From Eledone cirrhosa (Eukaryota), in assembly GCA_964016885.1 (NCBI GenBank), contig OZ024741.1:122326001-122390000 (forward strand): a DNA stretch of 64,000 nt, read 5' to 3'. The notes under the pieces are model-generated. The model was not told the DNA's origin, ran no database searches, and saw only the letters and a program-made list of their open reading frames with translations. This document shows positions 1,790 through 57,802 of the stretch, one piece after another (position 1 is the first letter of the stretch; each line of letters opens with the position of its first letter). The position numbers and the translations under genes are program-made.

Positions 1790-2435
1790 AGAAATTTATA
1801 AATTCCTAAATTTATAAATTTATTATAATAAATTGAAGTGAAAGCAACTGGTGCGTGTGTTTCTTATTGGCAACATGAACCTCCCAAAGTATAACAATAT
1901 ATATAAATAAATAAATAAATATATATATATATATATATATATATATATATATATATATATATATATATAATTATATAAGAATAGAGGTGTAACACACGAG
2001 TTGTGATATATTAGTAAAAGGAAAATTAAATGCTGACAAATTTTTCCCAGTGAAAAATAGTTTAATTAGGAATAATGAAAAATTAGTAATAAGTATTGGT
2101 TAGTATTCAGTTTTAGTTTGAAGTTTTTACCGGTTGCGCATTTCTAATGCTTTTCAAAAATAATTTTAAACTATTTTACTTTTACTAATATATATATATT
2201 AGTAAATAATTTTAAACTATTTTACTTTTACTAATATATATATATATATATATATATATATATATTTCGTTTCTGAATTTTGTTTAGCAAGATTCTTTAT
2301 CTGAAAACGTTTGTTGAAACCGATATTGTTATGCTTTGGGAGGGTCATGTTGCCAATAAGTAACACACGCACCAGATGCTTTCACTCCAATTTATTATAA
2401 ATTAAATTTATAAATTTAAGAATTTATAAATTTCA
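1790..2435. repeat. diverged inverted repeat (about 1790-1900 vs 2325-2435) of a PLE-tail-like element in (TA)n
   Basis: ...ctggtgcgtgtgtttcttattggcaacatgaacctcccaaagtataacaatat matches the reverse complement of 2325-2430; a related end recurs at about 42660. Confidence 0.75.
2125..2160 (-). ncRNA. hammerhead motif, U3-A8 core variant, with A13C lesion
   Basis: Reverse complement TTT TTGAAAA GCATT aga AATGC GCAA CCGG TA AAA. Confidence 0.55.
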
Positions 2436-4384
2436 TATATATATACATATACATATACATACGTATATATACATATATATATATATATATATATATATGC
2501 ACACACACACACACACACACACACATACATATATATATATATATATATATATATATATATATATATATATGTGTGTAATGTGTATATGAAACATAATTGT
2601 TGCATTTAGAGATCGACATGTTACCAGTATTGTTTTTTATTGACTATATTGATAACATGACTATCTCCACACACGTTCAGGCGCACACGTACACAGACAC
2701 ACATACACGCACACACACACACACACACACACACACACACACACACACACACACACACACACACACACACACACACACACACACACACACACACCTCCCC
2801 CCACACACAGACTCACTCTCACACACACACAAGCTCACTTTTCCACACACACACACACACACACACACACACATATATATATATATATATATATATATAT
2901 ATATATATATATATATATATATATATATATATATATACACATACATACACTTACATATACAGACATAAACACACGCGCGCGCGAGTGTATATAATCCTGC
3001 ACGAAATAGAATTTCATTTATTTGTTAGTATTTTTGTCCAACACTTTATTGTATTACAACAGTTTCTATATGTTAATAAAAGGGGAAATATTGAAAGGAA
3101 GAGGAGACATAGACATCCACATAATTAAATTAAAAAAATTACAATTGTGGGAAAGTTTCTCTTTTACTTTCTTCCTTCCACAACCAGTTATCAGATTTGA
3201 CGAATAAAATCTAAATAAGTGAAATATACAAAGAGAGACCTTGAACTCTTCTATAATTGTTTCTACTTTAGGCACAAGGCCAGCAATTACCCAGTGCATT
3301 ACTGGTACTTTATTTTAATAACTGATAAACATGATCAAATTAAACAGGATATAGAAAGAAACATTTACTGTCGCTGTAGATATGACGTTGAAGTCCAATC
3401 ACTAAACACATGTATGTTTTGAAGCATAACCTAGAATTTGGGGGATTATTCAACTTCAGGTTATTGCAGACGGCTTGTGTAGAACTACAGTCAAATAAAC
3501 AAAAACATTCAGGGCATGTAGTTGTAAGGCCAGTAACTTGCTGCACCTTTATGATATCCACAAAATAACGAATTAAGGTTGTGTCTCTACATTGTCAAAT
3601 AAGGATCTATATTCTTTAAGAATGTCAGGTAACATTGAATAATGCAGCTAATCCATAGAATGGGCCTACGTCGGTTTAGACGGTAAGTGTTCGACGCAAA
3701 GCTATGATGAATACCCCTTGTTCAAGATGCCTCGCAGAAGGTTCGAATCCGGGACCTAATTATTGTGAAGGGAACTTTTTGGTCATTCGGCCACGCTGCC
3801 TCTACATACGCAAACATACCAACACACAGTTATGCACCTCACATATTCAGGGTGTACCAAAAGTAACTAACCCATTTCAAATTAAAATACATATAAAATT
3901 GTCTGGTTACTTATGGGTCACCACAATCTTAATATAGTGAAAATTCTGTCTGCGTAGATATTCTAGTTGAGGCCCTCTTTACGTTGTTATCGATCTTATT
4001 GATGTATCTCTGACTAGTTTATCCACCGTATGTTTTAAGAAGATAATGCGTGATTTGAAGACGATTTTGCTGAACTTTCTAACATATGCAGCGACCAATT
4101 AGAGGTTCCTTTGGTAACTTCTTAAATGGAGTACTAGTTTTGAGGTACTGTAGTGGATATGATCGAGCTAAATCCCTTCAAGACGATGTCTAAGCACGGC
4201 TCCTGGGGTAACGTTTGACGCAGTGTGTGCATAAATATTCATTAAATTAATTATTGGAAATATGGCAAAATGATTTAATGCGTCACTATATATTTAGATA
4301 TACATATATATATTTCTATCTCAAAGTTCAGCTTGAGAATATTCATTCCTATGCTTATGTAGTGAATTTCTTTTTTCATTGCAG

Positions 4385-4493
4385 ATATGGTTAATGCTGA
4401 AACTACTACGACATTAAAACTAGCCGTCGCCTCCGCTTTAGCTATTTTTATGTTTGTAATGCTTTTGGTAGTCATCGTTATTGGTATTACCTG
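4385..4493 (+). CDS. Gene A internal exon: transmembrane segment of a single-pass membrane protein
   Basis: ttttttcattgcag|...|gtaagt; encodes xMVNAETTTTLKLAVASALAIFMFVMLLVVIVIGIT; phase 1 to 2. Confidence 0.8.
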
Positions 4494-5009
4494 GTAAGTT
4501 TACATCATATTTTGGTTTATCGATTAGTCAGAAAGTGGGAAAGGCCAAATGGCATGACCCTATACTTTTTCTAGGCCTTCGAAACTTGTTAGTGGTAGGG
4601 ATGAAGTTGGTTTCAAAGCAAAAGCTTGGTTCAAATGCGCGCAACACAGCTAGCTCCACTAACAGGATCCAAAGACCATGTGGTTGGGTTAAACTCTACG
4701 ATAGATTACGTCTATAATTTAAATCCACGGAACCCGTTGAACCAGAATAAATAAAACAGAACATTTTGCCTCACACTGTAACAATCCAGTTAATTTATCA
4801 CCGTCGACGGGTGTTATATTTTATTGACTCTTGAATCCCAAAGAATGAAAAAAAGAAAGCGGACAAAGCCAGGATATGAACTACTACACGGCATTTGTTC
4901 TTACGATTTAATGTCTCGGCCATTTCGCCATCTGTTGCATATATTTTCGTGAATTTTGTTTGAGATTATGTTTCGGAATTCCAATCTCGACAGAGTCTAA
5001 TTAGACATT

Positions 5010-5205
5010 CGTGGCGGAATTGGCACCAAACTGGATGAAAAATCTATTATCATGCTTCGTTACGATCCTTTAATTTTCTGAGGTTTCAAATTTAGCCGAG
5101 ATCAAGTTTTGCTTTAATCCCTTTGAGGATCGTTAAATAAGTACAATTCACTTAATCAACTGTAACATCTGAAAATGTGGGGTTTTGTACCGACATTAAA
5201 AACTA
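5010..5205 (+). mobile_element. degenerate tRNA-derived SINE
   Basis: ggcggaattggc head, tctgaggtttcaaat box-B-like, ttttgctttaatccctttgaggatcgttaaataagtac core. Confidence 0.6.
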
Positions 5206-6016
5206 GACATAAGCACGTTTGAATGATTAAGAAATTGGCCTCGTAATTATGTGGTCTCTGTTGCGATCTTGCTACGTGACATCCAGAGAAAATGTATTTT
5301 CCATTGCCTCGGATCTATCTAAGCATTACTAGTGAAACAGGGTAGACAGAAACTGTATGCAAGCCCATCTGATGTATTGTACCTGTAATTCTAAGGCTCA
5401 TATTGTGTCACGATAACTTGGTTTTGTTATTACGTTAAGTGTTATATACGTCTGTGGGATATTCAACCAATTTACGTGTCAACCCATGAGATGGATGTTC
5501 AATTTATTGAACAATCGAATGCTTATAGTTCGAATCAACGCGAGATCCCTAACCTTCATGCAATAAATGTATTATTACCACCGATTGCAATATTAAACAG
5601 TGGGTCTTCGGAGTTGTTTGTACCACGTTCCTGTTAATTTATTTCGGAATGTTGCCTAGTTGTCAGTGCTACACTCATGAGCCTGGGTTTGTCTACTAGA
5701 CAGACTGGGTGACGCGTTGTGTTATTAAAGAAGGCCCTTCATTACATGTTATTTCAACCATTCAGCTGAAGAAAGGAGAACCAGGATTAACTGTGGGTTA
5801 ACTTTGCAATTGACTGGCGTTAGTTCGAAAGGATGAACATCGTGCTCTCAATAGTTTAACGCCCATGAATCTCGGATAAACTTCAAACTTCGTCCAACTT
5901 AAGCAATAAAAAAAAAAAAAAAAAAATAAAAATGCAGCCGTAAGCAATTGGTCAATTAATTTCCATTCTATACTAACAAATAATATTTATTAAACTGTAT
6001 GAAGGAGATTAACATC

Positions 6017-6165
6017 GGCAGCGAATTGGCTGAGTCATTAAAAGGTCAGATAGAATGCTTTCTGTTATTCGTCTCTGCTCTCTGAGTTCAAACCATGCAG
6101 AGGTCAACTTTGCCTTTCATCCATTCGACGTCGATAAAAATGTACCACACTAGTACTGGGATCAA
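6017..6165 (+). mobile_element. tRNA-derived SINE (MetaSINE-like core)
   Basis: gagttcaaacc box B; ctttgcctttcatccattcgacgtcgataaaaatgtacca core. Confidence 0.7.
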
Positions 6166-57035: not shown

Positions 57036-57056
57036 ATATATATATATATATATTAC

Positions 57057-57252
57057 TAATAATTGTTTCTACTTTTGGCAGAAGGCCAGCAATTATCCAA
57101 GTGCATTACTGATACATTATTTTATCAACTCCGTAAGGAAGAAAGGCAAAGTTAACCTCGGCGGGATTTGAACTCAGACCGTAAATGGCCGTAACTCTAT
57201 GTTGCAAAGCATAGCGTCCGTCCCTCTACCATTACTGACAATCCAACGCCCA
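57057..57252 (-). mobile_element. tRNA-derived SINE
   Basis: Box A/box B/core pattern, 30 bp into gene B intron 1. Confidence 0.85.
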
Positions 57253-57283
57253 CATATTACTAATAATAATAATGGTAACTTAC

Positions 57284-57587
57284 TTCTATAGAAAGACATC
57301 TGGTCATTGACTGGGCCACTGGTGACTGTCATTATATTCTCTGATGAATGTAACTTACAAAGTTGCACGACTTTGTCATAAGTGAAGAATAGTATTTCGT
57401 TATTTAAAGAAATGGCAGCACATTGTATAAAACTGGTTGCAGGTACGAAGCGATCAGCTGTCTTTTCCAAAATATAACTATAGGTATAGCCATTCTCCAG
57501 AGATCGGTAGTGGGCTTCTTCATAGCGCGGCACCGAGACAACGGACAGTATTGTCGCAATGAGAATTGTCCACCTCATACTAGCCAT
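57284..57587 (-). CDS. Gene B exon 1: signal peptide + PAN/Apple-like domain
   Basis: MASMRWTILIATILSVVSV hydrophobic leader; SFIQCAAIS..FFTYDKVVQLCKLH; donor A|gtaagt, phase 1. Confidence 0.85.
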
Positions 57588-57769
57588 AGATTCCCAGCTT
57601 TGCTTTTCTTTCAATATCGTAAACTTCCGGAGAAAATAGACAGATTATGGTAACATTTTTAAAATATAAAAATATAAATAAGTATAATAAAATACATGAT
57701 AACATTTTAAATTTTAGGTAGTCAATATATATATATGAGAAAAACCACAAACCCTCCTACTCAATTCTA

Positions 57770-57802
57770 CTTTTGAAAAGCAGAACTGCGAAACCGGTAA
57801 AG
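57770..57802 (+). ncRNA. 33-nt minimal hammerhead, U3-A8 core variant, intact
   Basis: CTT TTGAAAA GCAG aa CTGC GAAA CCGG TA AAG, inside a 200-bp TA-flanked element (57737-57930). Confidence 0.7.

Follow-up and report, generated by a model that had tools for sequence, protein, structure and literature searches.

Hammerhead motifs in the window

The DNA analysed here is a 64,000-nt stretch of the Eledone cirrhosa genome (the window: assembly GCA_964016885.1, contig OZ024741.1, positions 122,326,001 to 122,390,000 of the forward strand), which holds many (TA)n runs and retroelement debris and, among these, hammerhead ribozyme motifs whose core pair is U3-A8 (UUGANAA) in place of C3-G8 (CUGANGA). 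Very probably, these reflect type I hammerheads carried in the 3' repeats of several families of Penelope-like elements (PLEs), with core swaps inherited from master elements and a predicted self-cleavage that is weak and occurs mainly as dimers. An earlier inspection of the letters (hereafter, the original prediction) had named six sites as U3-A8 cores or decayed relatives, and all six are present where it placed them. These sites, together with related copies and the elements that bear them, are as follows.

57770 to 57802, plus strand: U3-A8 type I minimal hammerhead of family F1, core UUGAAAA at 57773 to 57779 (direct reading and descriptor)
57737 to 57930, plus strand: F1 3' tail of a 5'-truncated Neptune/Nematis-like PLE, flanked by (TA)n runs
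2125 to 2160, minus strand: hammerhead motif of the GCAA family, with U3-A8 and C13 (GCAA replaces GAAA)
1978 to 2170, minus strand: GCAA PLE family (subfamily b), 3' tail of a 5'-truncated copy
15155 to 15199, minus strand: intact type I hammerhead of family F5, with U3-A8 (UUGAUAA; descriptor match at 15195)
15476 to 15520, minus strand: decayed F5 copy, core TTGGTGA (U3, G6, G8)
15861 to 15905, plus strand: decayed F5 copy, U3-A8 retained, GGAA instead of GAAA, stem III broken
15017 to 16070, no strand: retrozyme-like array of tandem and inverted units of about 320 bp (F5)
16159 to 16257, minus strand: F7 hammerhead motif with long stem II and 4-bp stem III, at the 3' end of a Hydra-like PLE
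23286 to 23328, minus strand: degenerate motif of an old A8 family, hammerhead status uncertain

The motif at 57770-57802 reads CTT / TTGAAAA / GCAG-AA-CTGC / GAAA / CCGG / TA / AAG, with a palindromic CCGG and a predicted cut after 57799; both its GCAG/CTGC stem II and its core, which had been called intact, are confirmed by direct reading and by the paired-stem descriptor. The core is intact, yet this copy is weaker than the main F1 form: loop II is 2 nt long versus AAGAA in the latter, and stem I has 3 bp versus CCTT/AAGG. On the minus strand, 2125-2160 reads TTT / TTGAAAA / GCATT-AGA-AATGC / GCAA / CCGG / TA / AAA. The two TTGATAA cores noted beforehand at 15154 and 15860 belong to the F5 copies at 15155-15199 and 15861-15905, the first of which combines a GTAC/GTAC stem II and an AGCT/AGCT stem I with the palindromic stem III CAGAGCTCTG. 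The site at 16159-16257 is, as had been supposed, a decayed U3-A8 copy: position 3 is an A here and a U in fetched F7 copies. A further observation concerns 57767-57790, where the U3-A8 core and the U-rich strand of stem I together are nearly palindromic; this competes with hammerhead folding and is specific to this core.

The window was scanned with a descriptor of type I motifs with paired stems, with 60 local dinucleotide shuffles as background. Strict matches were limited to 57773(+) and 15195(-), both U3-A8, and 2157(-) was added when one mismatch in GAAA was tolerated; the shuffles gave 0 strict matches and, once a mismatch was permitted, no more than 0.03 per core type. The 57770 and 15195 motifs both conform to the type I consensus YUGANRA...GAAA...UH with a 3-8 base pair. 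The 2125 family departs from it at A13 in the GAAA strand and is classed as a hammerhead-derived variant, not as a canonical member. Stems I and II are paired and stem III is a short palindrome or hairpin, while the pairs of stem II vary among families. In monomer folding the hammerhead is favoured for 16159 (z -2.5) and partly for 15195; for motifs of the dimer type, folding as a monomer is not expected. The Rfam hammerhead model had no match among the best 150 of 216 at E<=10, which consisted only of microsatellite-driven miRNA matches.

Carrier elements

Copies of F1 end in (TA)n about 140 nt past the motif, are 5'-truncated and often form back-to-back pairs with a longer tail on one side, which is the layout of PLEs (PMC8557442; here and below, statements on earlier work refer to the passages cited rather than to whole papers). 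At the F1 locus L041, a frame on the motif's strand, with reverse transcriptase (RT) and GIY-YIG domains, lies 1.2 kb upstream, and same-strand RT/GIY-YIG frames are found upstream of the GCAA family (L205-L209 and L224) and of F7 (L211, L212); no PLE frame was found beside copies of F5 or of the 23286 family. The features expected of endonuclease-bearing (EN+) PLEs are all seen, namely 5' truncation, inverted or tandem copies, a one-sided tail and (TA)n targets. Clade names are motif-based only, the tree described below containing no named reference elements. On this basis F1 and the GCAA family are placed with Neptune/Nematis-type elements, the shared features being the CX4CxxC linker (in the F1 frame and one GCAA-family frame), DKG (in the GCAA and F4 frames) and insertion into (TA)n. 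The F7 frame of L212 carries RLRWRT (LRWR), SDKTGN (DKT) and CNCPDRSIC (CxCX5C), as in the Hydra clade (PMC8557442); the large C3-G8 classes likewise lie behind Hydra-type frames. For one PLE protein of the window, named homologues include Octopus sinensis (67%) and O. bimaculoides. U3-A8 motifs that appeared linked to frames of the L049/L059 type were set aside as coincidental insertions, those frame families carrying C3-G8.

F5 is organized differently. Its units are spaced 321-323 bp apart in the window and 320 bp in L192, and one of the three hammerhead-bearing units of the window is intact. Non-LTR retrozymes are defined by noncoding tandem units of 150-450 bp that contain a type I hammerhead, and F5 corresponds to this definition. 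Its low-GC tandem units of about 320 bp, with one type I hammerhead per unit, resemble those of published non-LTR retrozymes (PMC7229834; Li et al., bioRxiv 10.64898/2026.07.22.740005), from which F5 differs in having U3-A8 with a C3-G8 sister subfamily. Retrozyme-like tandem arrays also occur elsewhere, such as L110:281-3381, with 11 C3-G8 units at 310-bp spacing, and L133:636-2274, with U3-A8 units at 592-bp spacing.

Two side observations concern the PLEs themselves. Most F7 copies (window 7930-8078; L038, L102, L153 and many more) break off inside the hairpin of the long stem II and continue as an inverted copy, and these junctions suggest that reverse transcription stalls and switches template there. 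L058 and L078 represent a second PLE type. In the 3' untranslated region (UTR) that follows its RT frame stands a conserved sequence resembling a hammerhead, in which stem II is paired (GGAT/ATCC) and GAAA and TATA are present but the core is irregular.

Frequency of U3-A8 and C3-G8 cores in the genome

Genome-wide counts were made with sequence patterns that do not require pairing, over the 3.0-Gb genome in 1,796 contigs, and are lower bounds. With the tail GAAACCGGUH, the U3-A8 core (UUGANAA) was found 23,290 times versus 48 for the backwards control, and C3-G8 103 times (control 154). The mismatched cores U3-G8 and C3-A8 gave 187 and 231 matches, so that U3-A8 far outnumbers both, and in the window it also exceeds the shuffled sequence (about 0), as the original prediction required. 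Among the matches listed, most half-changed cores derive from U3-A8 families by a single mutation; each kind amounts to about 1%, in line with the decay expected after insertion. With the tail GAAAURYRYAUH (the TRYRYA class), the picture is reversed: C3-G8 was counted 109,384 times (control 333), and the 2,344 U3-A8 matches are close to background (control 1,953). An apparent dominance of U3-A8 in the genome (23,290 vs 103) was thus an artefact of the fixed CCGG tail, overturned by the TRYRYA counts and by random samples.

These samples consisted of 100 evenly placed 10-kb stretches (1 Mb, 37% GC). A strict scan gave 20 C3-G8 and 4 U3-A8 motifs and a relaxed one 66 and 15. Each of the three descriptors misses some families (the relaxed one loses 57773, with its 2-nt loop), and the final count is therefore their union, 93 C3-G8 and 24 U3-A8 (20 GAAA, 4 GCAA); shuffles averaged 0.7 and 2.0, respectively. 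U3-A8 thus accounts for about a fifth of the hammerhead motifs of this genome, in at least eight stem types, and is not the norm here. Stem II varies among families with its pairing kept (GCAG/CTGC, GCAT/ATGC, GATG/CATC, GTAC/GTAC, GCAC/GTGC). The proposal that the variant is common in this genome rather than a one-off consequently holds for its recurrence, at least eight stem II/stem III types being present in 1 Mb, but not for its share, since it is a minority (24/117).

Patterns specific to single families were also counted. The F5 (15195) pattern had 1,166 matches, the first 100 of which comprised 91 U3-A8, 7 C3-G8, 1 C3-A8 and 1 U3-G8; for the F7 (16159) pattern, with 10,076 matches, 78 of the first 100 were whole motifs and 76 of these 78 had A8. 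The 23286 family, with 54 pattern matches, had A8 in 50, C8 in 4 and G8 in none. Of its 12 fetched copies only 6 have U at position 3, and neither stem I nor stem III is well formed, which makes this site, also named as a decayed relative, plausible as such and nothing firmer. Two candidate groups were rejected as lacking stem II: a supposed C3-A8 family (the CTGAAAACGTGTGTT matches), which is not a hammerhead, and many GCAACCGG matches with TGAAGATRGGG.

Seven C3-G8 motifs, none of them named in the original prediction, are present in the window:

1708 to 1750 (core 1712), plus strand: C3-G8 motif of canonical type within the 3' UTR that follows the PLE frame 366-1506, read directly; the same motif is found in L180 and L223
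56928 to 56990, plus strand: canonical C3-G8 motif, core at 56936
10053(-), 18742(+), 24276(-), 24590(+), 47130(-): other canonical C3-G8 cores

Canonical-core motifs of the TRYRYA class, with a 6-nt stem III, such as those at 10053(-) and 56936(+), number at least 109,384 and lie behind Hydra-type PLE frames; all classes combined, the genome holds well above 150,000 hammerhead motifs. Additional U3-A8 families, which differ in their stems II and III and have no link to a frame, occur at L111:6877(-), L123:1158(+), L182:1802(+) and L082:3181(-).

Descent of the core pair

Loci with related RTs outside this genome, 124 in total, were obtained by alignment-based scans of genome and metagenome contigs, single-protein scans having returned nothing. 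They contained 17 distinct C3-G8 and 10 distinct U3-A8 motifs (3 stray matches; shuffles 0.4). Most of the U3-A8 motifs came from one assembly at 40-45% GC, while C3-G8 was also present at 29% GC. Animal-type PLE frames (L225-L272), a part of them with hammerheads, stand in bacterial metagenome-assembled genome (MAG) records, most likely as host contamination.

An RT tree was built with IQ-TREE from 37 rows, comprising 15 from this genome and 22 outside loci with a motif, motif-less loci being omitted. It contains 6 changes of core type, at least 3 of them forced by starred branches. A single clade (SH-aLRT 100), set amid mostly C3-G8 relatives, unites F1, F3 and F4 with the GCAA family, and F7 falls among C3-G8 Hydra-type elements. 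The 57770 and 2125 motifs align at 84% over 37 nt, and their RTs belong to the same clade. These relationships indicate one inherited U3-A8 switch for 57770 and 2125; 16159 and 15195 correspond to separate switches. The core had been described as recurring in dissimilar elements; unrelated carriers do exist, but these two sites are not independent of each other. Within F5, a tree made with the two core columns masked groups six C3-G8 copies and one C3-A8 copy in a clade (98), which nests within the U3-A8 copies on the midpoint root, the root itself being unsure. Core type thus sorts by family.

Three other explanations bear on these results. Chance matches in AT-rich repeats could be suspected because UUGANAA is itself A/T-rich and because the backwards control of the loose TRYRYA pattern is high (1,953). 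The excess of 23,290 over a control of 48, the near-zero shuffles, the paired stems that vary by family and the constant position in PLE tails leave this with practically no probability; chance is refuted for all of the six named sites but 23286, which is uncertain. In the original prediction the variant was attributed to the AT-rich genome, that is, to AT-biased mutation driving C3-G8 towards U3-A8 across all elements as a genome-wide property. Both changes are indeed transitions towards A/T, the sample is 37% GC and at least three lineages here carry U3-A8. Against this stand the 93 C3-G8 and 24 U3-A8 motifs of the random 1 Mb, the 109,384 C3-G8 motifs of the TRYRYA class as opposed to U3-A8 at background level, and the GC contents of the outside loci, which run the other way; the nested F5 C3-G8 clade would moreover be a change back, if its unsure root is correct. 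The data, including the larger C3-G8 families here, favour family descent, and a mutational cause appears improbable. Coleoid cephalopods show heavy A-to-I editing, and a host factor of this kind could in principle select U3-A8 or switch the ribozyme by editing A8, an editable base, in a host that looks octopus-like by the named homologues of one of its PLE proteins. U3-A8 nevertheless makes up the smaller share here and is at least as frequent in Schistosoma mansoni (PMC4209133) and in unrelated outside loci, so that such a factor is very improbable, more so than AT bias.

The GCAA family

The 2125-family pattern had 10,763 matches, and the first 100 comprised 97 GCAA, 2 GAAA and 1 GGAA; the family numbers about 10,400 copies. 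The GAAA change noted at 2125 is real, but the original prediction missed that GCAA is fixed across the family and does not reflect decay of a single copy. On the RT tree this family is nested in the U3-A8 CCGG clade, as sister to a GAAA family. The 35 copies examined fall into two subfamilies (23 and 12) with median distances of 0.6% and 1.3% from the subfamily majority, and this low divergence indicates that the expansion is young. Between the subfamilies, the only change within the motif is a 1-nt indel in loop II, against 24 differing columns among 132 downstream, where one indel accounts for 8, and 3 among 58 upstream. Conservation of the motif is thus suggestive of constraint, without reaching significance. 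Contigs of two other organisms cover the GCAA motif with no listed difference at C13, a weak observation from single contigs at depth 6-13 and of unknown library. A search of sequencing runs for this family listed no RNA data set, a result that carries no information on expression.

Changes of A13 have been reported to reduce activity 10-100-fold (Nelson and Uhlenbeck, as cited in PMC4075628), and the GCAA ribozyme is for this reason predicted to be weak. In an Anolis PLE, hammerhead mutants left insertion in vitro unaffected, and cleavage needed the protein of the element (PMC11167929). The GCAA family likely spread with a weak ribozyme; in the simplest account, its insertion would not require efficient cleavage. 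The opposite, that the GCAA form is a working variant in which C13 does no harm or sets cleavage at a low but useful rate, via A8 or the protein of the element, is rather unlikely. It would account for a motif kept whole in both subfamilies, save for the loop II indel, next to a diverged downstream region, for the youth of the copies and for the protein requirement seen in Anolis. The scarcity of upstream differences nonetheless makes an unchanged stretch of 30 nt not significant, A13 changes are inhibitory, and no C13 family occurs among the 27 distinct canonical or U3-A8 motifs of the 124 outside loci. Less doubtful, if still tentative, is the broader proposal that a young PLE family has fixed a double core change (U3-A8 plus C13) in about 10,400 copies, whether as a working natural variant, via A8 or the protein, or as a natural knockout, with PLEs spreading in vivo without cleavage.

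Proposed mechanism and relation to known hammerheads

Under the preferred reading, inheritance of core swaps from PLE masters, each swap would have arisen once in a master element and then been copied thousands of times. The U-A pair would hold nucleotide 8 in much the same way as C-G. Tandem transcripts could let two copies pair via a palindromic stem III (CCGG or CAGAGCUCUG), allowing a slow cut after UH17 (PMC4209133; PMC6765202). C13 would have appeared later in the lineage of 2125, which nevertheless multiplied to about 10,400 young copies, the simplest account being insertion without efficient cleavage. Most genomic copies, those of the window included, are stubs that lack a promoter and are probably inert.

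The U3-A8 covariation is natural and was described as active in vitro (PMC3088659). Several points weigh in the other direction. Pairwise mutagenesis of the CUGA region of one hammerhead found rescue by C3G/G8C only, other double mutants remaining low (PMC9901934), and U3-A8 may for this reason be weakly active. The minimum-energy monomers of 57770 and 2125 are not hammerheads (z -0.17 and -0.18); in 57770 the A-rich core pairs instead with the U-rich strand of stem I. As for descent, the RT tree is a quick one, without bootstrap and with a long-branch warning, the core labels of outside loci are those of the nearest motif behind the frame, without comparison of copies, and a (TA)n run interrupts the link of the F4 motif to its frame.

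The occurrence of U3-A8 in PLE hammerheads is already published (PMC4209133; PMC3088659). In the Cercyon PLEs of S. mansoni (Cervera and De la Pena, 2014; PMC4209133), hammerheads are likewise of type I, with a palindromic stem III and a short stem I, in PLE terminal repeats; as here, they are mostly solitary or in opposite-strand pairs from truncated copies, with U3-A8 as a sizeable minority. With about 1,300 U3-A8 versus about 2,000 canonical minimal motifs in that species, the variant can hardly be called rare, as it had been. The present genome differs from the metazoan PLEs of that study by its far larger copy numbers (at least about 42,000 U3-A8 and 109,000 C3-G8, as pattern counts) and by at least three separate U3-A8 lineages, as well as by the C13 family, which the passages cited from that study do not mention. 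Natural core variants compiled by Perreault et al. (2011; PMC3088659) also include U3-A8; those listed in section 8 are A6C, A6a, U13a and U15.1-A16.1, and not C13. In search listings and open-access texts, no report was found of a C13 hammerhead family or of octopus hammerheads. The recurrence of U3-A8 is ordinary for PLEs, and the C13 family, as far as these texts go, modestly new.

A practical consequence is that searches restricted to CUGANGA miss about a fifth of the hammerheads of this genome. What PLE hammerheads are for is an open question (PMC8557442; PMC11167929), and the C13 family of about 10,000 copies beside its GAAA sisters, together with the C3-G8/U3-A8 pair of F5, offers matched natural variants with which to test it.

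Other features of the window

Two frames stand next to named sites, one at 58107-59961 (minus strand) near 57770 and one at 366-1506 (plus strand) near 2125; both derive from other insertions. A LINE frame of 902 aa at 29803-32511 (minus strand) contains endonuclease and RT (Pfam RVT_1, E 8e-21). At 57174-57644 (minus strand), a 156-aa open frame with a hydrophobic start, two cysteines and no Pfam match may be an exon of a secreted protein.

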